This document shows, piece after piece, positions 27,135 through 48,038 of a stretch of DNA of 64,000 nt. The position numbers and the translations under genes are program-made. How positions within the stretch are numbered: the stretch's first letter is position 1; every line of letters starts with the position of its first letter. The stretch is taken from the NCBI RefSeq assembly GCF_056746865.1, contig NZ_CM163382.1; one strand, 5' to 3'. The notes beneath the pieces are model-generated. The model was not told the origin of the DNA and did no database searches. It saw only the letters and a program-made list of their open reading frames with translations.

Positions 27135-27590
27135 TAGACTGGCCCCCTGAATCTCCAGACAACCAATATCACTTAAATAAGTGATAGTCCTGATACAAGT
27201 TTTTAGAGTAGTCATTAGTGAACAGATAATTGTTAACTTAGAACCAGTAAAATGCAAACGACGCACCACGCTGGGAAAATCGCTGCTATTCAGCAGAGTT
27301 TTGTACCGAGAATTGTGGCCAGCCACTTATTGCTCTCGCGTAAGCAGGTATCCCCATCGTTTACCAGTCCAGCACATCTTGTGGTCAGGCAGAAGAAGAG
27401 CAAACTGTTACTGGACTCACTGCATGCATGGTGGAGAAAAATGCCACGCTATCCAAAAATCCAGACTGGGAGAATGGTTCAGCTGTGTACTGAATCAGTG
27501 GGGCGCACTCTGTTATTACAGTGTTGACGGTCAGGCGGAGGCAGACATAATGCCGCGGAAAAAGCCCTTTGTGCCATCTGTCTCGGAAAT
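27135..27590 (+). mobile_element. IS2-group (IS3 family) left-end remnant
   Basis: first ~55 bp (TAGACTGGCCCCCTGAATCTCCAGACAACCAATATCACTTAAATAAGTGATAGTC) nearly identical to the IS2 end at 12468..12522, then a diverged OrfA-like reading frame. Confidence 0.55.
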
Positions 27591-27805
27591 AAAAACTTTA
27601 TGTTCTTCGGCGGCGAGCGCAGTGCACTGTTGTATGGGCTTATCGGCACTTGCCTTCTGAACGACATTGATCCGGAAGCGTATCTGCGCCATATCCTGAG
27701 CGTACTGCCGGAATAACCTTCCAACCGTATTGATGAACTCCTGCCATGGAACGTAGTTCTCACCAATAAATAAGCATCAATATGATTCTCCATTAACGCT
27801 TACCT
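27590..27805 (+). mobile_element. IS66-family right-end fragment (3' end of tnpC plus terminal repeat)
   Basis: encodes ...LLYGLIGTCLLNDIDPEAYLRHILSVLPE*PSNRIDELLPWNVVLTNK; ends in CGCTTAC (reverse of the GTAAGCG IS66 terminus). Confidence 0.55.
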
Positions 27806-35327: not shown

Positions 35328-35897
35328 TCAACTCCGGCTACAGCCAAAATTGCGCTCACCGGTGCAGTGAGCTTTGGTATGTTCCTTCGCCAGATAGTCA
35401 GCACGTTCCAGCACCTGCTGAAAGCCAGTGTCATCATCGCGTTCCAGCCACACCGCCGGCCAGGCCGGGAAATGCACCAGCGTGGCATGGCACCCGACAT
35501 CCACTCCCAGGGCACTGCACCACGCCTGTTTAATCATCCCGGCCAGTGATCCCGGAGCACGGTAATCACCGGCACGACACCAGGTATCCCGGTTAACCAG
35601 CAGCATCAGGTGATAGTGTTTTTTACCTTTGCACTCCCCAAACTCCCGGGCCCAGACGTAATGCAGGGTTGTGGGATGCACGCGTTTACCTTCCCGATGC
35701 TTACGTTTCTGGTAAGCGTCGATTCGGGCTTTCAGGGCATTGATGAAGCGGGATATCACAGCTGCGTCCGTTGCTGCCGGTACATCCGGGAAACGCAGGT
35801 CAACCCGCAATGCCGTCAGGCGGGGATGAACATTCAGTGCGTGCCGCACCGTCTCACGAATACGTTGCTGCCAGAAGGGGTTGTATTTGTAGGTCAT
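35328..35897 (-). CDS. YagK/YfjJ-family (inovirus Gp2-like) protein
   Basis: ORF 35328..35933; likely start ATG 35897 (MTYKYNPFWQQRIRE) with GGAG RBS; family call from memory. Confidence 0.5.
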   Translation of the reverse strand: MTYKYNPFWQQRIRETVRHALNVHPRLTALRVDLRFPDVPAATDAAVISRFINALKARIDAYQKRKHREGKRVHPTTLHYVWAREFGECKGKKHYHLMLLVNRDTWCRAGDYRAPGSLAGMIKQAWCSALGVDVGCHATLVHFPAWPAVWLERDDDTGFQQVLERADYLAKEHTKAHCTGERNFGCSRS

Positions 35898-36297: not shown

Positions 36298-37423
36298 GAT
36301 AACGGTTCATGTATCCCCTGAGCTGACAGTGTACCGGGTATATTAAGCGTAACCGACAGGTTCTCCTTCATACCATATTAAATTTTTCCAGGTATTGCCG
36401 CTGCCTTATTTCGTCCCATACAGGAAAACTCGTCTGGGTTTCTGACAAATACGCGAAACTCACAGCCCCTCAATATCAACCACACGCTGTAAGCCGGTAA
36501 TACCTGAAAATCAGCCTATTACCGCCCGCGCCTCCGTTACCGAACGCTCAGGTGACCAGACTGAAGCCCAGCACGCACTCGTAAAATTTGCGGTCAGTTC
36601 CGTCAGTCAGTGGGCAACCGCAGAGTTACGGGCTTCCAGGTCCACAGGAGTGAGTCTATAACGCGTGTGGGAAATCATTTTTTCTGGCGTTGACAGAACG
36701 CCTTACGGGCTGCTACTTACCCGGTGTCCCGCAATACAGCCTTAGTGTTCCGTTATCGGGGATCCGGACGCACCGCAACAACCGGGGAAGTATTTCTGGT
36801 TAGAGCTGTGTCAAGAGGGATTTCTCAGCCCCTCACTCACCGGCTCAGTCTCAGGGCAGAAGCATTAATACACTCAGTTCATGTCTTATACAGGAATGGG
36901 CATAGGGGGAGCTGGCGTGTCACTGCTGATTTTACGCATCAGCGTTCATGTATCTGCACTCTGATACAGAATGCTTCACAGCGCTCTGTTACCGGAGAGA
37001 TTTACTCTCTTAGGTTATTCTGGCAAATCCTTTACGTTACTCTCTGATGACTTCTTATATTTATAATACCAATCAGACAACCTTATCCCATCGGTGATAT
37101 CAGTCTCCTGCTCGCCAGGAACGGGCTGACTCACTGTAACCACCTCCGAAAACAACTCTGCAATTATCAGAACGCCTGCTTCTCTCCCTGTCCTCACGAA
37201 AACTATCCCCTCTTTATCGCGCGTGCGTGCGGAAGCATCTTTTCGCAACCCCCCCCCCCGGGATTCCGCTACGGCTCTGCCATCGCAATCCCCCCGTTTA
37301 TCTCCGGACAGCCACATTCCCGATTATTTTTTACGTTTCTCCCCGGTTGTTATGCCGGTGAAGGTGGCGCGCTGTTTTCATGACCACACCGGCTGGTTTA
37401 ACAACATCCGGAGGAACATTCTC

Positions 37424-38326: not shown

Positions 38327-39285
38327 TGTCTGAGAACCACAGGGCTGGCAGCAGAAAACCAGCCCTGTGGTAAAATACAGTAATAGCGGCGTACATCAGG
38401 CACGCCGCTCACTCGTCCACAGATCATATACGTCATTATACTGCGCGATAACGGAGGGCTTCAGCACCCGGTCATTTCTGAGCGGGTATGAATACCATTG
38501 ATGATGCGAAGCAGCCACGGGCAGAAACGTTCTTCACAACCAGGTGCCTCCATCTTCACTGCAGTCTGAATGTGCCGGCTTGTTATCCACCAGAAATGGT
38601 ATGCTCCGGTACATGCATACCCCGGAGACTATAAACGCACTGAATCATAGCCTCCCACCTCAGCAGGAGGCAGTCAGCTTTCAGGCGGAAAAACGTTGCA
38701 GTTAAAGATCGTGAGAATCGCTGTTTCGTTGCATAGCAACCCGAACAGTTGTAGTGAAACATTTTACCTGCATCAGCACATGGTCAGGCGCCGTCTGTAT
38801 GGCGTGGAATACTGATGTTTCGGCTGATGGCAAGCCTCATTCTCTGTGGAAACAGGGGCGCGCATTAGCTTCTCAACCAAGAGAGTGTCACAAAGACAAA
38901 TATTGCTGAAAATCGCATTCATCGTTCAGGCGTGAATGCCCGGAGACAAAAGCCGCTGTCCACACAGTCCCCCTCTGACCTGAACAAAAAGCATACACAC
39001 AACAGGCTCACCTGACCCCGAAAAACCATAACTTCAGCAATACCAGTGACACCAGCACGTTACCTCAGTGCCACATCTTCAGACCGCGATCAATCTGAAA
39101 TGTGACTATCGGGGCAATATCCCTGCTTTGTGGTACACGATAACCAGAAAACATCCCCTGAACCGCCAGCCAGAAAGACTGGCCACAAAAGGGGTAAGCT
39201 GAAATCGTTTATGGATTACATCGACATATGCCTGGCAGAGAATGGTAAGCGTGCAGTGAGAACCGTATTGACGAAGTGAAGCTGG

Positions 39286-40821
39286 TCAGGCGGGCAGAGT
39301 AACCCGCCACGGGAGCAGAGCACCCACCCGGTTCACAGGCCAGTCGGCGATGACATCAAGTACATGATGCAGATAGCGTTCCGGATCCACGCCGTTTAAT
39401 TTGCACGTCCCGATAAGACTGTACAGTGACGCACCGCGCTCACCACCATGATCCGAGCCGAAGAACAGCCAGTTTTTTCTCCCCAGACTGACCAGTCGTA
39501 GGGCGTTTTCGGCAATGTTATTATCCACCTCCACCCAGCCATCTTCTGCATAGCGGGTCAGCGCCGGCCACTGGTTCAGCGCATACCCGAACGCCTTCGC
39601 CAGTTCTGAGTGCCTTGAGAGGGTTTTCTGTTTCTCCCGCAGCCACCCCTCCAGTGACGCCAGCAGCGGCAGCACTTTTTGGTGCCGGACTGCCTGCCGT
39701 TCCTCTGCTCTTTTACCTCTGAGCTCCGACTCGATGGCATACAGCTCGCCGATCCGTTTCAGCGCCTCCTCCGTCAGGGCTGACGGGGTACGGACGTGAA
39801 CATCGTGGATTTTTCGGCGGGCATGGGCCCAGCACGCGGCTTCCTTTATATGGCCGTCGCGGTAGAGCTCGTTGAACCCGGCGTAGGCATCAGCCTGCAG
39901 TACGCCACTGAAGCCTGCAAGATGGGTCTGAGGGTGGATACCTTTTCTGTCCGGGCTGTAAGCGAACCACACTGCGGGGGCCAGCGCTGATCCGGCGTTG
40001 CGGTCGTCTCGAACGTACGTCCATAAGCGCCCGGTCTTCGTCTTCTTATTGCCCGGCAACAGCACCGGGACAGGCATATCGTCAGCATGGAGTTTGCCGT
40101 CGGTCAGGACATAGTGCTGAAGGGCTTCATCCAGCGGTGCCAGCAGACGACAACACGCATCCACCCAGCCCGACAGTACAGAACGACTCAACACTACACC
40201 CTGGCGGGCATAGATCTCCGACTGGCGATACAGCGGTATGTGCTCTGCATACTTTGAGGTCAGCACTCGGGCCAGCAGCCCCGGTCCGGCGATCCCCCGT
40301 TCGATGGGGCGCGAAGGAGCCGGGGCCTGAACGATGCGATCGCACCGACGGCAGGCATGCTTTTCACGGACTGTCCGGATAACCCGGAAGGCGCTGCGCA
40401 TCAGCTCCAGCTGTTCGGCGGCATCCTCACCCAGGTAACTCAGCGAACCACCGCACTCCGGGCAACACGGCTCAGTCGGCAGCAGCCGCTTCTCATCCCG
40501 TGGGAGTGACTCAGGGAACGGTTTGCGGGTGCGGGTCTGACGCAGCGGGCGCTGCACTGCCGGGTCATCCACCCGGCCGGTCAGCGTATCGCTTTCCTGC
40601 TGCAGCAGGTTCAGGTCAGCTTCCATTTGCGCGATACGGCGGGATACCTTTTCGGAACGACTGCCGAAGTTCATCCGGCGCAGCTTATCCAGTTGCGCCT
40701 GCAGATGGTCTATTTCGCGTTCCCGGTTGCTCAGCTTTTCCTGCAGGGCGTGGATCAACGCTTCCTGGTTCGGCCAGGCGCTGTTTCAGCAGAAGGATGT
40801 CGTCAGAAGAGGTGTCGTTCA
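39286..40821 (-). pseudogene. IS66 transposase TnpC with a frameshift in the first ~20 codons
   Basis: ATG 40821 encodes MNDTSSDDILLLKQRLAE, then one extra C shifts into the long ORF (QEALIHALQEKL...) at 40758..39286. Confidence 0.7.
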
Positions 40822-40871
40822 TAAGCCTGTATTTTACCAGGCTTATTCTGCGACAACCAGGATAAAGAGCG

Positions 40872-41219
40872 CTACAACATGGTCAGGGATGTCAGTAACC
40901 GCTTTGGCTGTCGCCAGTCGATACCTTCCATCAGCATCGCCAGTTGCGCCGGCGTCAGGAACACTTTGCCATCGCGGGCTGAGGGCCAGGCGAAGCGACC
41001 ACGTTCTAGTCGCTTTGTCAGCAGGCACAGACCATCGCCGGTGGACCAGAGCAGTTTTACCTGACTGCCGCTGCGTCCCCGGAAGATGAAGACGTGGCCG
41101 GACATCGGGTCATCTTTCAGCGCGGTCTGCACCTTTGCGGCGAGGCCATTGAAGCCGTTGCGCATATCGGTGATACCGGCAACCAGCCAGATTTTTGTGC
41201 CTGCGGGAAGATTTATCAT
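40872..41219 (-). CDS. IS66 accessory protein TnpB
   Basis: 115 aa, MINLPAGTKIWLVAGITDMRNGFNGL... Confidence 0.85.
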   Translation of the reverse strand: MINLPAGTKIWLVAGITDMRNGFNGLAAKVQTALKDDPMSGHVFIFRGRSGSQVKLLWSTGDGLCLLTKRLERGRFAWPSARDGKVFLTPAQLAMLMEGIDWRQPKRLLTSLTML

Positions 41220-41599
41220 ACAGGCCCCCGCATCAGTTCGCGCAGGACAGTGCTCATGAGTTCAGCAGAGGGATGAGTCAGTGTTATTTCTCCTCCCCGA
41301 CATTTTATGTGGCAGGTAGCGGGAGGAGAGCAGGATGGTAGTTCGAAGGTTGGGAGAGAAGAGCCCGCCTGAAGCTGCACGGGTATCAGGGCAGGAAGCG
41401 ACGATGAGTTTTTTCGGGGCCGACAGACCCGCCCTTCACGCTGCCAGAGCCTTATCCATTTAAAGAGCAGGTTATCATTGACGTCATGTTTCCGGGCCAG
41501 TGCGGCAATACTGCCTTCTTCTTCAAGAGCCAGCCTGACCAGTTCCATTTTGAATTCAGGGGAATAGTGTTTCCGGGGAAGTCTTTCTTTAGCGCGCAT
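41216..41599 (-). CDS. IS66 accessory protein TnpA
   Basis: 127-aa ORF whose stop overlaps the tnpB start. Confidence 0.7.
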   Translation of the reverse strand: MRAKERLPRKHYSPEFKMELVRLALEEEGSIAALARKHDVNDNLLFKWIRLWQREGRVCRPRKNSSSLPALIPVQLQAGSSLPTFELPSCSPPATCHIKCRGGEITLTHPSAELMSTVLRELMRGPV

Positions 41600-43154
41600 G
41601 AGGTGTCCACCTGCAAAATAAGTGGGTGCTTAAGTTACAGGATCCTGGATTCGGGACCAGACGGTACTCAGACGACGCTTACAGAGAATGTCCGGAATGA
41701 CGAGGTTATCTTTGCGGAGATTAAGGCAATGGTATACGGGCCGACGTTCCATGCCGCGTTACTACATTCAGCCCGGACGTAAAATGCGCCCGTCAAAAAG
41801 AACGGTTCGCTTCGAAACTCAGCCAGGATACCACCTCTCCGCCACACCCGGGAAGAAGTTGATATGGTGGTTGCCGGACAACAGCGCTCCTGGATTGACT
41901 GCTGCATCACTCAACCACGCTGAATATCAAAGGAGAGCGTTACCGGTTAAAAGAGAAACGTAAAGCTGTGGTGATGACCCAAAACGCAACGCCTGTCAGT
42001 GAGGATGAAATGGTGAAAAGCGGACAGCATCAGTAACGGAAGTATCTTAGCGGGTACGAAAATGGCAGGATCGTGACATTGACAGAATATCTCCTGATCA
42101 TCCTGAATGACTGCAGTTGCTGTAGAAAAGTAAGCTGTCTCCACCCACGGCACCACTTAACAGGCATTCCGTAACTTCCCCCAGACTTACTATGACGCAT
42201 TATCGGTGCACTGAAAACGGGAGAGTGCGCTTAAAACCGCAGACCGCATGCGGGTGTTACTGCATGACAGTCTGGCCGTATTGTGAGATGTCGGCAGGAA
42301 CCGATGTCCGCGCAGGGGGGAACTTCCTGCAGTACCTGACGCTTCAAATGGTATTAACCGTAGGGTGTTGTTGGTTCCGGATCGCGGAAATGGGAGCACA
42401 GGTCTGCTACGGGGTGTACCTCTGACAGTATATCCGGCTCGCTCATCTGACAGCCTCTCTCCCGGAAAAGACCAAAAATGAGATCGTCTCCTCAACAGCA
42501 GAGAAGAGGTCTTGACAGACAGGCTATATTGCATACGATTTATGAAGAAAAAGACAGCAAATATGGAGGTTATAGCGGAGAATACCCTACGAAATTCCTA
42601 TGAAAAACGATTGAAAAAAATATCAAATTCGATTCGTTTTTATATGCTTTTTGGGAGCGTGGCGATGACGAACTGTTGCATGTGCAGAGGAGAATGCACC
42701 CGGAAGCACCAGAATCATCCAGAAAGGCAGAACGATTACGCATCAAACCAGGAGACAGCAATATCAAGGTAATATACTGATTTAAAATGAATTTACAGCA
42801 ATACGTGAAAACATTTTTTACTTAAAGGAGACAGATGCGCTGAAGAGAGTGCAAGTATTTTTATATAAAAATGAGAAGTTTACGGGATGTATATCCGGCA
42901 CACTATGACCGGAGAATATCAGTCAAGCTTAAAAAGACAATAAATACAGTGAGTTAAATACACAGAGAAAACGTAGTATCAGAGGGTACATCTTACAACA
43001 GAGACTGAATTTCCGGTTTTTCATAACCGGCGCATTCCGGAAAGTGCAGGCGGCCCGGAGGTTTTCTGACGCCACTACCTGGTAGATTGTTCTGTACATC
43101 ATGTACGGAGGTTTTTGTTTGCTTTTTTAAAATCTGCAAATGTGAGAAAAGCAG

Positions 43155-44318: not shown

Positions 44319-44839
44319 TTTCAGACAGATATTATTTCCGTGAATCCCCCGCCACCTTTCCGGTGCGCGGGGTTTTGTCTTTTTTCACCGGGAATACATG
44401 TATGAATCCGTCTGATGCCATTGAGGCAATTGAAAAACCGCTCTCCTCCCTGCCTTACTCACTTTCCCGTCACATCCTGGAACATCTGCGCAAACTCACC
44501 AGTCACGAACCCGTGCCTGGCATTATGGGTAAAAGCGGGGCCGGTAAATCCTCACTCTGTAATGCGCTGTTTCAGGGGGAGGTCACCCCGGTCAGTGATG
44601 TTCACGCCGGCCCCCGGGAAGTGCAGCGCTTCCGTCTTGCAAAATGGCATCTGAATCGATCGCAGTTTGGCATTCGAATCGATCATGATTTGGCATCCAT
44701 CTCCGATCACAGTTTGGCATCACAATCGATCACGATTTGGCATGCTTCCGATCATTGATTGGCATCCTGCCAGTCACTCCGGGAATTAACTCTTTTCACC
44801 ACAGTCTCCATTGCCGTGTTTAAACCAGTGGAGACGTCA

Positions 44840-46405
44840 ATGTCCAGAAAGAGAAAATCCAGGAGCACTATGGAAACCTGTTTTAAGATTCTTCAGCTCA
44901 AGTTCGACAAGAAGCTGACTAACCGTTGTATCGGACTGACGTTACACATCAGCGCCTCAACCGTTTTTGAGGTTCTTGCCCGCTTCAAAGCCTCTTCTCT
45001 GTCATGGCCATTACCTGCTGATATATCCCATGACACGCTGGAGAAACTCATTTTTCCGCCCAAAGACACCTTTGCATCAGAGCTTGTAATGCCTGACATG
45101 TTGTACCTCGATACGGAAATGAGAAAACCAGGTGTGACGCGGCAACTGTTGTGGATGGAATACAAGGCACAGGCGGGTAACAAAGCGATGGGATACTCGC
45201 ACTTCTGCCGTTGCTACCGGGAGTGGAAAAAAACGCGACGTCTCTCCATGCGCCAGGAGCATCGTGCCGGCGAAAAGCTTTTTATCGACTTCTGTGGTCC
45301 TACGGTTCCTGTTATTAATCCGGACACCGGTGAGATACGCCGCGTGGCAATCTTCGTGGCCGTAATGGGGGCGTCCAACTATACCTACGTTGAAGCGTGC
45401 GAAGGTCAGGACATGATGTCATGGTTAAATGCCCACAGCCGTTGCCTGACCTTCCTGGGCGGCGTACCGAAGCTGCTCATCCCCGATAACCTCAGAAGCG
45501 CAGTGAAAAAGGCCGATCGATATGAGCCTGTCATCAACGACAGTTATCAGGCACTGGCTGAGCACTATGGCACGGTTATCATCCCGGCCCGACCACGCAA
45601 ACCTAAAGATAAACCAAAAGCAGAAAACGGCGTCCTCATCGTCGAACGATGGCTTCTTGCCCGCATCCGTAATGAAACCTTCCACACGCTCAGGGCGCTG
45701 AATGCGCGCCTTAGGGAGTTACTGACAGACATGAATAACCGGCCAATGAAGGGGTACGGCAATCAAACCCGTGCAGAACGCTTCCGCATACTGGATGCGC
45801 CAGCACTCTCTCCGCTGCCTCTGGCACCTTATGAATACACGGAATACAAAGCTGTGAAGGTTGGCCCTGACTACCACGTTGAATATGCCCGTCACTGGTA
45901 CTCCGTTCCACACGAACTGGTCGGTCAGCGTCTGTCACTGAAGGCGGGGCAGTCGGTGGTACAGCTCTGGCACAAGGGGCAGTGTGTGGCGCAACATCCG
46001 CGCAGCACACATGAATATAAACACACAACCAATCCGCTTCACATGCCAGAGCGCCACCGGCAGCACGGGACATGGACACCGGAACGCCTGATCGAGCAGG
46101 GAAAACGTACGGGCCCGTCCACAGGCCGGGTGGTTGAATCCATGCTGAAGGCAAAACCCCATCCGGAACTGGCTTATCGTGCAGTTCTGGGGCTGCTGGC
46201 ACTTCAGAAAAAATACGGCCCGGAACGGCTGGAAAAGGCCTGTTACGTTGCCCTGCACTATAACGCCCCTGACAGACGCTTTATCGACAATCTGCTGCGT
46301 CACCATCGGGAGAACCTGGAGCTTCCATTATCCCGCCAGGGCGAACAACATCCGGCATATGCTTCAGAGCATGAAAACCTGCGTGGTCCGGGCTACTACC
46401 ACTGA
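44840..46405 (+). CDS. istA: IS21-family transposase IstA
   Basis: ORF 44759..46405; start placed at MSRKRKS (44840), uncertain. Confidence 0.8.
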   Translation: MSRKRKSRSTMETCFKILQLKFDKKLTNRCIGLTLHISASTVFEVLARFKASSLSWPLPADISHDTLEKLIFPPKDTFASELVMPDMLYLDTEMRKPGVTRQLLWMEYKAQAGNKAMGYSHFCRCYREWKKTRRLSMRQEHRAGEKLFIDFCGPTVPVINPDTGEIRRVAIFVAVMGASNYTYVEACEGQDMMSWLNAHSRCLTFLGGVPKLLIPDNLRSAVKKADRYEPVINDSYQALAEHYGTVIIPARPRKPKDKPKAENGVLIVERWLLARIRNETFHTLRALNARLRELLTDMNNRPMKGYGNQTRAERFRILDAPALSPLPLAPYEYTEYKAVKVGPDYHVEYARHWYSVPHELVGQRLSLKAGQSVVQLWHKGQCVAQHPRSTHEYKHTTNPLHMPERHRQHGTWTPERLIEQGKRTGPSTGRVVESMLKAKPHPELAYRAVLGLLALQKKYGPERLEKACYVALHYNAPDRRFIDNLLRHHRENLELPLSRQGEQHPAYASEHENLRGPGYYH

Positions 46406-46421
46406 CAGAAGGAACAACAGT

Positions 46422-47177
46422 ATGAGTGATAACCTGTTAAACAAACTGACCCAACTGAAACTCCCGGCGATGGCCGGGAGCCTGATACGGCAGCGGGAAA
46501 CGCCTCAGACCTACGACGAACTGTCGTTCGAGGAAAGGCTGACGCTGCTGGTTGATGACGAGCTTCTGAGCAGGGAAAACAGCCGTGTGGCACGGTTGAG
46601 AAAAAATGCCGGCCTGAAATACCAGGCAACACCGGAAGGGCTGCGCTATCCGGCCTCAAGAGGTCTGCGGGCTGAACAGATGAGAGAACTGCTGAACGGC
46701 CACTACATAACCCACAGGAAAAACCTGCTGATAACCGGTCCGACAGGATGTGGCAAGAGCTGGATAGCCAATGCGCTGGGCGAACAGGCATGTCGACAGA
46801 AACACAGCGTCCGGTACTGTAGAACCGGGCGATTACTGGAACAACTGGCTCAGGGACGTGTTGATGGCAGCTGGCTGAAATATCTGAAACAGTTGCAAAA
46901 AATACAGGTTCTAATCCTGGACGATCTGGGGCTGGAACAGTTAAGTAACGCCCAGTGTAATGACCTTCTGGAGCTCATAGAGGATCGTTACGGACAAAGC
47001 AGCACGATAGTGGTAAGCCAGTTCCCGGTAGATAAATGGCATGGTCTGATGGAGAACCCAACAACAGCAGATGCCATCCTGGACAGACTGGTACATAACT
47101 CACACCGGGTGGTCCTTCAGGGAGAGTCACTGAGGAAAAATCCCCCGGTAGTGGAAAGCAGCGAAAAAACGCGTTAA
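46422..47177 (+). CDS. istB: IS21-family ATP-binding helper IstB
   Basis: start ATG 46422 (MSDNLLNKL); Walker A GPTGCGKS; DExx-like LILDDLG. Confidence 0.85.
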   Translation: MSDNLLNKLTQLKLPAMAGSLIRQRETPQTYDELSFEERLTLLVDDELLSRENSRVARLRKNAGLKYQATPEGLRYPASRGLRAEQMRELLNGHYITHRKNLLITGPTGCGKSWIANALGEQACRQKHSVRYCRTGRLLEQLAQGRVDGSWLKYLKQLQKIQVLILDDLGLEQLSNAQCNDLLELIEDRYGQSSTIVVSQFPVDKWHGLMENPTTADAILDRLVHNSHRVVLQGESLRKNPPVVESSEKTR

Positions 47178-48038
47178 AAAGCGGTAGAAAAAGTTAAGTT
47201 CCCGGTTGATCGAATGGATGCGAATCGCTGATCGGACTTCGATGCCAATCCGTGATCGAATAGAGCGGAATACGCATCCGTCTGAATGGCCATGGTCACA
47301 GCATGGTTATCACTGACCTGCCCGGGGTGGGCGAGAGCCGGGACAGGGATGCAGAGTATGAAGCCCTGTACCGTGACATTCTGCTCGAACTGGACCTGGT
47401 ACTGTGGCTGATTAAAGCCGATGACCGTGCCCTGTCTGTGGATGAGTATTTCTGGCGACACATCCTGCACCGGGGACATCAGCGGGTACTGTTTGTGGTG
47501 ATGCAGGCCGATAAAACGGAGCCCTGCCATGAATGGGATATGGCCGGTATTCAGCCTTCTCCCGCACAGGCACAGAACATTCGCGAAAAAACGGAGGCGG
47601 TATTCCGTCTGTTCCGGCCCGTACATCGGGTTGTTGCCGTATCGGCCCGCACCGGCTGGGAACTGGATACGCTGGTCAGTGCGCTCATGACAGCACTTCC
47701 CGACCATGCCGCCAGTCCCCTGATGACCCGCCTGCAGGACGAGCTGCGCACGGAGTCTGTCCGGTCTCAGGCCCGTGAACAGTTTACCGGTGCGGTGGAC
47801 CGGATATTTGACACGGCGGAGAGCGTCTGCATTGCCTCTGTTGCACGCACGGTTCTGCGCGCCGTCCGTGACTCGGTGGTCTCTGTTGCCCGCGCGGTAT
47901 GGAACTGGATTTTCTTCTGAACCCGGTGGTGATGTACCAGGCTGTTGTTACAGATTTTTAACTCCATGAAAACACTATGCAAACGCAGCCATACCCGGGT
48001 TGTCCCCTTGCGTTGTGTTTCTCAAGTTAATAGAATAC

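Follow-up and report, generated by a model that had tools for sequence, protein, structure and literature searches.

A single-base insertion in tnpC of an IS66-family element in an Escherichia coli chromosomal island

Relation to described IS66-family elements

Elements of the IS66 group carry three ORFs, tnpA, tnpB, and tnpC, of which tnpC is the most conserved and is thought to encode the transposase, and their target duplication is 8 bp long (PMC6778807). The founding members IS679 and IS66 (Han et al. 2001, J Bacteriol 183:4296; Machida et al. 1984; both cited in PMC6778807) have the same three ORFs and 8-bp duplication but are only distantly related to the element described here. This element lies in the window, the 64,000-nucleotide stretch of DNA that was analysed, at a locus corresponding to the island that separates cobU/tRNA-Asn from yeeA/sbmC on the E. 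coli chromosome. Han et al. reportedly found all three ORFs to be needed for transposition.

ISEc8 of E. coli O157:H7, found for example on the pO157-type plasmid pTX265-1, has the same tnpA-tnpB-tnpC order, GTAAGCG termini, and an 8-bp duplication, which reads GGCGAAAA at the copy in L008. The TnpC N-terminus MNDxSSDDIxLLKQRLAEQEAL is conserved between ISEc8 and the window element, and the two are 96.5% identical in TnpB and 87.7% identical over the full 511 amino acids of TnpC. Their nucleotide identity of 83% is confined to element positions 482-2438, whereas the first ~480 nt, comprising the left end and the start of tnpA, cannot be aligned, and TnpA is only 37% identical. By the ISfinder convention, isoforms share roughly at least 95% amino acid or at least 90% nucleotide identity across the element, and with these values the window element was rejected as an isoform of ISEc8. 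Because the nucleotide match covers only this part of the element and TnpA is so divergent, the window element is, judged by sequence comparison, a distinct, mosaic IS with respect to ISEc8. ISEc22, also of the IS66 family, is more divergent, with ~82-83% nucleotide identity over tnpB-tnpC and a different N-terminal sequence (MSSSLPDDINALKRLLAEQEAL), although the LAEQEAL motif is shared. PGAP names ISEc8 copies specifically and the window element only as 'IS66 family transposase'; the name given by NCBIfam, RefSeq annotation, and PLSDB annotation is likewise the generic 'IS66 family'.

An intact 2437-bp form occupies the same site in other genomes. It has the same inverted repeats, tnpA, tnpB, and 8-bp duplications, and the window copy differs from the orthologous chromosomal copy only by one extra C, which makes tnpC a pseudogene, and by one synonymous SNP. 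Intact examples include E. coli 64.1 (NZ_CP059917.1, 2876440-2878876, TnpC WP_001000401.1) and plasmid pAPEC-O1-R (NC_009838.1, TnpC WP_001000406.1). The intact form is widespread: 494 genome records of E. coli, and 334 records of plasmids belonging to E. coli, Salmonella, Klebsiella, and Enterobacter, hold matches of at least 99% identity. RefSeq genomes already contain this element, its family, and the exact frameshift allele in annotated form; in strain Santai the same allele carries the PGAP label 'IS66 family transposase, frameshifted'.

Structure of the element and its insertion site

The coordinates of the element and its parts are given in Table 1. A preliminary description had reported that the IS66-family element is complete, with an 8-bp target duplication, GTAAGCG and CGCTTAC termini, and intact tnpA and tnpB, and each of these features was recovered here. 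The octamer AGAGAATG flanks both ends, all three proteins are assigned to the family, and the terminal heptamers extend into 22-nt inverted repeats that are imperfect, with 77% complementarity between IRR and IRL. The ends of IS66-family elements are imperfect inverted repeats of ~20-30 bp that start with 5'-GTAA(GCG), and the window element has such ends together with the 8-bp duplication, tnpA and tnpB upstream of tnpC, and an IS66-type DDE domain, the frame of which is interrupted in this copy. The stop codon of tnpA and the start codon of tnpB overlap in ATGA (TCAT on the plus strand at 41216-41219), and every base of the two genes is the same as in copies with intact tnpC. The NCBIfam matches of both (NF047595 for tnpA and NF033819 for tnpB) exceed their cutoffs. 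The long frame of TnpC matches PF03050 with an E-value of 7e-104 over profile positions 1-283 of 284, along with PF13817, PF13007, and PF13005, and scores 462 bits against NF033517, for which the cutoff is 180. Searches with blastn and tblastn detected no second copy of the element within the window. They found only short remnants, at 27460-27761 and 57655-57771, of the C-terminal part of distant IS66-type TnpC proteins.

Table 1. Positions of the IS66-family element and its features in the window
Feature	Coordinates	Strand	Length	Remarks
IS66-family element, whole	39245-41682	-	2438 bp	
Target-site duplication AGAGAATG, tnpC-proximal	39237-39244	.	8 bp	Sequence and empty site
Target-site duplication AGAGAATG, tnpA-proximal	41683-41690	.	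8 bp	Sequence and empty site
IRR, terminal inverted repeat, tnpC-proximal end	39245-39266	-	22 nt	Starts GTAAGCG
IRL, terminal inverted repeat, tnpA-proximal end	41661-41682	-	22 nt	Plus strand ends CGCTTAC
Terminal heptamer GTAAGCG	39245-39251			
Terminal heptamer CGCTTAC	41676-41682			
tnpA, HTH accessory protein, intact	41216-41599	-	127 aa	PF01527, NF047595; identical to WP_001201739.1
tnpB, IS66 Orf2-type accessory protein, intact	40872-41219	-	115 aa	PF05717 (E=1.7e-38), NF033819; identical to WP_000609174.1
tnpC pseudogene, DDE transposase	39286-40822	-		+1 insertion after codon 18; aligned to intact 511-aa TnpC WP_001000401.1
CC dinucleotide with one extra C	40767-40768	-		Single C in intact copies, ISEc8, and ISEc22
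Remnant ORF from native tnpC ATG	40685-40822	-	45 codons	First 18 residues native, the rest out of frame; stops at TAA
Long ORF from TTG (native Leu21)	39286-40758	-	490 codons	LZ_Tnp_IS66, zf-IS66, DDE_Tnp_IS66, DDE_Tnp_IS66_C

Many E. coli genomes have the target in uninterrupted form, with only one AGAGAATG, and it aligns there in one piece with 382/382 identity. Since the empty site has a single copy of the octamer and copies of the same IS elsewhere are flanked by 8-bp duplications of their own (GAAAAAAT and GTTAGGCC), the duplication at this locus is not a chance repeat. In one empty-site genome the existing annotation lists the target itself as a pseudogene that is both frameshifted and incomplete.

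Origin and distribution of the extra C

From its start codon, an ATG at position 40822, tnpC has the sequence MNDTSSDDILLLKQRLAE. Alignment to an intact orthologous copy revealed exactly one additional base, which is a C of the dinucleotide CC at 40767/40768, in agreement with the preliminary description, which had placed an extra C after codon 18 and had noted that the long ORF opens at a TTG. As a result codon 19 is CCA (40768-40766) instead of the CAG of intact copies, and the frame from the native ATG reaches a TAA at 40687-40685. ISEc8 and ISEc22 both read GAA-CAG at this position, with one C. All four TnpC Pfam domains lie 3' of the shift.

Comparison with other copies, which had been proposed as a check within the same genome, was carried out across 5,426 complete E. 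coli genomes, in which this IS was found at 652 places in 503 records. The normal element is 2437 bp long with an intact 511-aa TnpC, and an intact single-ORF tnpC is the rule among the copies. The extra C is present in 25 of the 503 records and 25 of the 652 copies, one copy in each genome, and whereas the intact form has many insertion sites and is carried by many plasmids, the extra-C form is found at one site only. At exactly this chromosomal junction the IS is present in 273 genomes, 30 of which match the junction query perfectly. Part of this query is the C at 39292, which marks the sole position in it at which the two sequenced intact alleles (L002 and L003) differ, the change being synonymous (CCT to CCC). 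All 25 extra-C genomes fall inside this group of 30 with the linked SNP, and all have the element at the same site, where strains 64.1 and EH08-18-36 have the 2437-bp element with an intact TnpC. Its restriction to 25 genomes at one site within a single SNP group, together with the single C in ISEc8 and ISEc22, shows the extra C to be a genuine mutation passed on by vertical inheritance.

Single-base indels are the commonest type of error in long-read assemblies, and the true gene could in principle be intact, with the extra C introduced during sequencing or assembly, the outcome that would have overturned the preliminary description. This is very unlikely indeed, as the same base appears in 25 independent complete assemblies of isolates of varied host and source and only in genomes with the junction haplotype carrying the 39292 SNP. 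Five flank SNPs (42854, 37626, 37495, 37257, and 37250) are also common to the extra-C window and Santai and missing from the two intact-allele genomes, and the shift site is a CC dinucleotide rather than a homopolymer.

Other IS families, among them IS1 and IS3, are known to use programmed frameshifting, and an IS3-family example is annotated in the empty-site genome. For the window element, a programmed shift at the CC, through +1 movement of the ribosome or slippage of RNA polymerase, would yield full-length TnpC at a regulated low level, and its sole support is that two overlapping frames between them cover the whole protein. The two-frame layout is not conserved, being limited to 25 of the 652 copies, which share a single orthologous site and one haplotype group. 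The extra C is missing from the other 627 copies and likewise from ISEc8, from ISEc22, and from a third relative. Neither an X XXY YYZ heptamer nor a run of at least four identical bases is present at the shift or close to it, the nearest such run being the AAAA at 40739, ~30 nt downstream. Repair of the frame would require a +1 shift, and GAA CCA GGA appears to offer no hungry codon, stop codon, or re-pairing option. We assign a programmed event, the third explanation in the preliminary description, a negligible probability and reject it. Of the explanations offered there, the evidence instead selects the first, an inactivated copy.

Fate of the interrupted tnpC

Translation might restart inside tnpC, giving an N-terminally truncated TnpC that still transposes the element or acts as a regulator or inhibitor. 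The two candidate starts are the TTG at 40758, which would leave out residues 1-20, and an ATG in the same frame at 40674, which would leave out residues 1-48. The 490-codon ORF retains the leucine zipper (LZ), zinc-finger, DDE, and C-terminal domains, and no Pfam or NCBIfam model covers residues 1-38 of TnpC. Just upstream of the TTG is the AGGA-like CCAGGAAGCG, whose best predicted duplex with the 3' end of 16S rRNA has -4.3 kcal/mol, compared with -2.8 kcal/mol for the native ATG context, and the ATG at 40674 lies 10 nt 3' of the TAA of the remnant ORF, a geometry that permits termination-reinitiation. However, TTG is a weak start codon in E. coli and the AGGA-to-TTG spacing of only ~4 nt is counted as unfavourable. 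Since the TTG position is CTG in ISEc8, ISEc22, and the third relative, the TTG is a chance feature and not a conserved start, and ribosomes translating the 45-codon ORF pass straight over it. Initiation at Met49 would strip 10 residues from the start of the LZ domain (residues 39-110). Conservation of the N-terminal 20 residues as protein across ISEc8 and ISEc22 (DDI..LK..LAEQEAL) suggests that they are important, and the extra-C allele was found at no second site in the 25 genomes that carry it. Productive re-initiation is consequently considered unlikely. By analogy with the N-terminally truncated Inh protein of Tn5, a truncated TnpC from either start might act in trans as an inhibitor or regulator of ISEc8-like IS66-family elements in the same cell. 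Such a role is decidedly improbable; if true, the extra-C allele would have been retained in the lineage as a domesticated 'IS tamer' and not as junk.

The window copy is very probably a once-active IS66 element in which a spontaneous single-C insertion turned tnpC into a pseudogene that has since been inherited vertically. This history, set around the directly observed structure, mutation, population distribution, and empty site, would have begun when the 2437-bp IS jumped into the remnant of a gene that had already decayed, within the cobU/tRNA-Asn - yeeA/sbmC island, duplicating AGAGAATG. The insertion of a C after codon 18 would have arisen later in one sub-lineage, separating the native start codon from the rest of the transposase, and the broken copy would then have been passed on vertically. 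We infer that the extra-C copy has lost its transposition activity. Because its ends, tnpA, and tnpB are intact, it is probably best described as non-autonomous, presumably making no full-length TnpC, and at most it could be mobilised by TnpC from another copy; the extra-C genomes contain no other copy able to supply the protein. The single-copy status of the allele is a weak sign of inactivity, given that the median copy number of the IS is 1 per genome even for intact alleles and that the genomes are not independent samples.

Few features of E. coli genomic islands are commoner than pseudogenised IS copies, and the finding is an ordinary one that matters very little in itself. The extra C, nested in the 39292 SNP haplotype within a shared insertion (25 genomes within 30 within 273), is nevertheless a clean lineage marker, and the locus provides a worked example of how population comparison tells a mutational from a programmed frameshift. 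Copies of this IS commonly decay. In strain 50EVA an IS1A further interrupts the extra-C copy, and a sequenced IncI plasmid copy (L006) has an independent 1-bp deletion in tnpC. Six more of the listed plasmid copies are 2436 bp long, as is L006, and their gene tables contain no tnpC.

Structure and affiliation of the element

The element has the make-up that the preliminary description had given it, with the duplication, the ends, the genes, the shift in tnpC and the TTG start of the long frame all seen in the sequence (see table). The termini read GTAAGCG at the 39245 end and CGCTTAC at the 41682 end, and tnpA and tnpB share an ATGA in which the stop of the first overlaps the start of the second. 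From its native ATG, tnpC reads MNDTSSDDILLLKQRLAE and then continues as PGSVDPRP... All three products are placed in the IS66 family by Pfam and NCBIfam, with matches to HTH_Tnp_1 and NF047595 for TnpA and to TnpB_IS66 (PF05717, E=1.7e-38) and NF033819 for TnpB. TnpC matches LZ_Tnp_IS66, zf-IS66, DDE_Tnp_IS66 (E=7e-104, full length) and DDE_Tnp_IS66_C in Pfam and scores 462 bits against NF033517 (cutoff 180), the shift site lying upstream of all four domains. IS66 elements carry tnpABC between repeats and an 8-bp target duplication, and tnpC is thought to be the transposase gene (PMC6778807).

Features of the IS66-family element and of its surroundings
Feature	Position	Strand	Size	Remarks
IS66-family element	39245-41682		2438 bp	genes on minus strand
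Target duplication AGAGAATG	39237-39244 and 41683-41690			both copies abut the element
Terminal inverted repeats	39245-39266 / 41661-41682		22 nt	77% complementary (repeat finder)
tnpA	41599-41216	minus	127 aa	
tnpB	41219-40872	minus	115 aa	
tnpC, native frame	ATG at 40822 to TAA at 40687-40685	minus	45 codons	
tnpC, long ORF	TTG at 40758 to 39286	minus	490 codons	+1 frame
IS21-family insertion	44638-47272		~2.6 kb	splits "GTPase family protein" gene
N-terminal piece of split gene	44363-44758			
IstA-like ORF	44759-46405			
IstB	46179-47177			PF01695, E=2e-60
Short remnants of other, distantly related IS66-type TnpC C-termini	27460-27761; 57655-57771	plus; minus		48-62% amino acid identity to this TnpC

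An empty-site query of 382 bp, in which the two flanks are joined by a single AGAGAATG, aligns unbroken and at 100% identity to many genomes, which shows that the target duplication is real. In O55:H7 RM12579, which has the empty target, annotation already treats it as an incomplete remnant with a frameshift, so nothing functional was destroyed by the insertion. Elsewhere, on plasmids, this IS is flanked by other 8-bp duplications, GAAAAAAT and GTTAGGCC, and the ISEc8 copy in locus L008 by GGCGAAAA.

Among named elements, ISEc8 and ISEc22 are the closest. TnpC of the L008 ISEc8 is 87.7% identical to that of the element over 511 aa and TnpB 96.5%, whereas TnpA reaches only 37%; at the nucleotide level the two align at 83% over element positions 482-2438 only, leaving the first ~480 nt, which hold tnpA and the left end (window 41200-41682), unaligned. 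The element is therefore a separate, mosaic IS within the IS66 family and no isoform of ISEc8, and the pattern suggests exchange of a tnpA/left-end module among family members. Elements of its kind are well understood, and it already carries annotation in public genomes, where PGAP, the NCBI annotation pipeline, gives it a generic family name only. The intact form is common: at an identity of at least 99% it turns up in 494 genome records of E. coli and in 334 records of plasmids, IncHI2 and IncI types among them, from E. coli, Salmonella, Klebsiella and Enterobacter.

The extra base and its distribution

In a search of 5,426 complete E. coli genomes with the whole element, the best matches were 15 identical copies of 2438 bp, and below them came many copies of 2437 bp at 99.9%. 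Alignment of three loci with their flanks (strains Santai, 64.1 and EH08-18-36) to the window revealed one insertion at one chromosomal place with common flanking genes, and only two positions differ inside the element among the four sequences. At 40767/40768 the window and Santai read CC, one C more than 64.1 and EH08-18-36; the second difference, at 39292, is a synonymous third-position change (CCC versus CCT, Pro). In 64.1 and EH08-18-36, which lack the extra C, tnpC runs uninterrupted for 511 aa (WP_001000401.1), and PGAP labels the Santai gene "IS66 family transposase, frameshifted". The flanks show single-base length differences of their own, an extra T at window 38880 relative to loci L001-L003 (L002 and L003 being intact alleles) and an extra G in Santai near 37260.

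A 61-mer centered on the CC hit 503 records from 457 genomes, at 652 places in all. The extra C, scored as a perfect match, is confined to 25 of these records, at one place in each, and 477 match at 98.4%, equal to one gap. With a 200-bp left-junction query, for which coverage of at least 80% was counted as the IS at the exact site, the window's site is occupied in 273 genomes. Thirty of these match perfectly, namely all 25 extra-C genomes and five others; the query takes in the C at 39292, the sole position within it where L002 and L003 depart from the window. This nesting of 25 within 30 within 273 is what would be expected if the IS had inserted once, a SNP had followed and one 1-bp insertion had come last, all passed on vertically, and neither query found the extra-C allele at any other site in complete E. 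coli genomes. An assembly error, named beforehand as the finding that would undo the frameshift, is very unlikely, as 25 independent complete assemblies agree on the extra C and on the haplotype linked to it, and the base does not sit in a homopolymer.

Consequences for tnpC

Three readings of the shift had been proposed at the outset. A programmed frameshift at the CC, by which the full protein would be made, is rejected. Neither an X XXY YYZ heptamer nor a run of at least four identical bases occurs at or near the shift site, and GAA CCA GGA would need a +1 shift to restore the frame and offers no re-pairing. The two-frame arrangement is also missing from 96% of the copies of this IS, and three relatives (ISEc8, ISEc22 and one more) lack it too, each having GAA-CAG at this point.

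Upstream of the TTG at 40758 stands CCAGGAAGCG, with a best predicted anti-Shine-Dalgarno duplex of -4.3 kcal/mol compared with -2.8 kcal/mol for the native ATG context, and 10 nt past the TAA of the remnant ORF there is an in-frame ATG (40674), so a TnpC restarted internally, and lacking its first 20 or 48 residues, is conceivable. We nevertheless regard such re-initiation as improbable. The TTG is not a conserved start, because it is CTG in all three relatives, and the N-terminal residues that would be lost are conserved at the protein level (DDI..LK..LAEQEAL). A start at Met49 would moreover clip the LZ domain (residues 39-110), and the extra-C allele shows no sign of mobility.

The remaining proposal, that the window holds an inactivated copy, is the one supported and fits all the findings described so far. 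Decay of tnpC is routine for this IS. The sequenced copy on an IncI plasmid (L006; NZ_CP024481.1 59039-61474) is 2436 bp long and has independently lost 1 bp of tnpC, at the base corresponding to window 40639, around codon 61. Six more listed plasmid copies (H147-H152) probably share this second frameshift allele, since they are of the same length and tnpC is missing from their gene tables. In strain 50EVA the extra-C copy occupies the same site (NZ_CP138412.1 3018460-3021673) and is additionally split by IS1A, which shows continued decay of a dead copy.

The surrounding island

The element lies in the E. coli chromosome between nac, tRNA-Asn, ldtA and cobTSU on one side and yeeS, yeeT, cbeA/cbtA, yeeA, sbmC, dacD and sbcB on the other, in what we take, from K-12, to be the variable island at the CP4-44 position. 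The island is strewn with IS4, ISL3, IS66 and IS21 elements and remnants. The plus-strand TnpC remnant corresponds to a Santai fragment annotated "IS66 family transposase, frameshifted, incomplete". Santai lacks the IS21-family insertion of the window; an IS21 transposase is listed beside the IS66 element in the extra-C genomes OY754409 and SWYH.B349aT, and its presence there in some extra-C genomes hints at the window's sub-lineage. Santai's annotation records a frameshift in cbtA, the toxin gene of the CbtA/CbeA type IV toxin-antitoxin system (L005, the Santai locus, 35416-35789; approximately window 56.2-56.6 kb).
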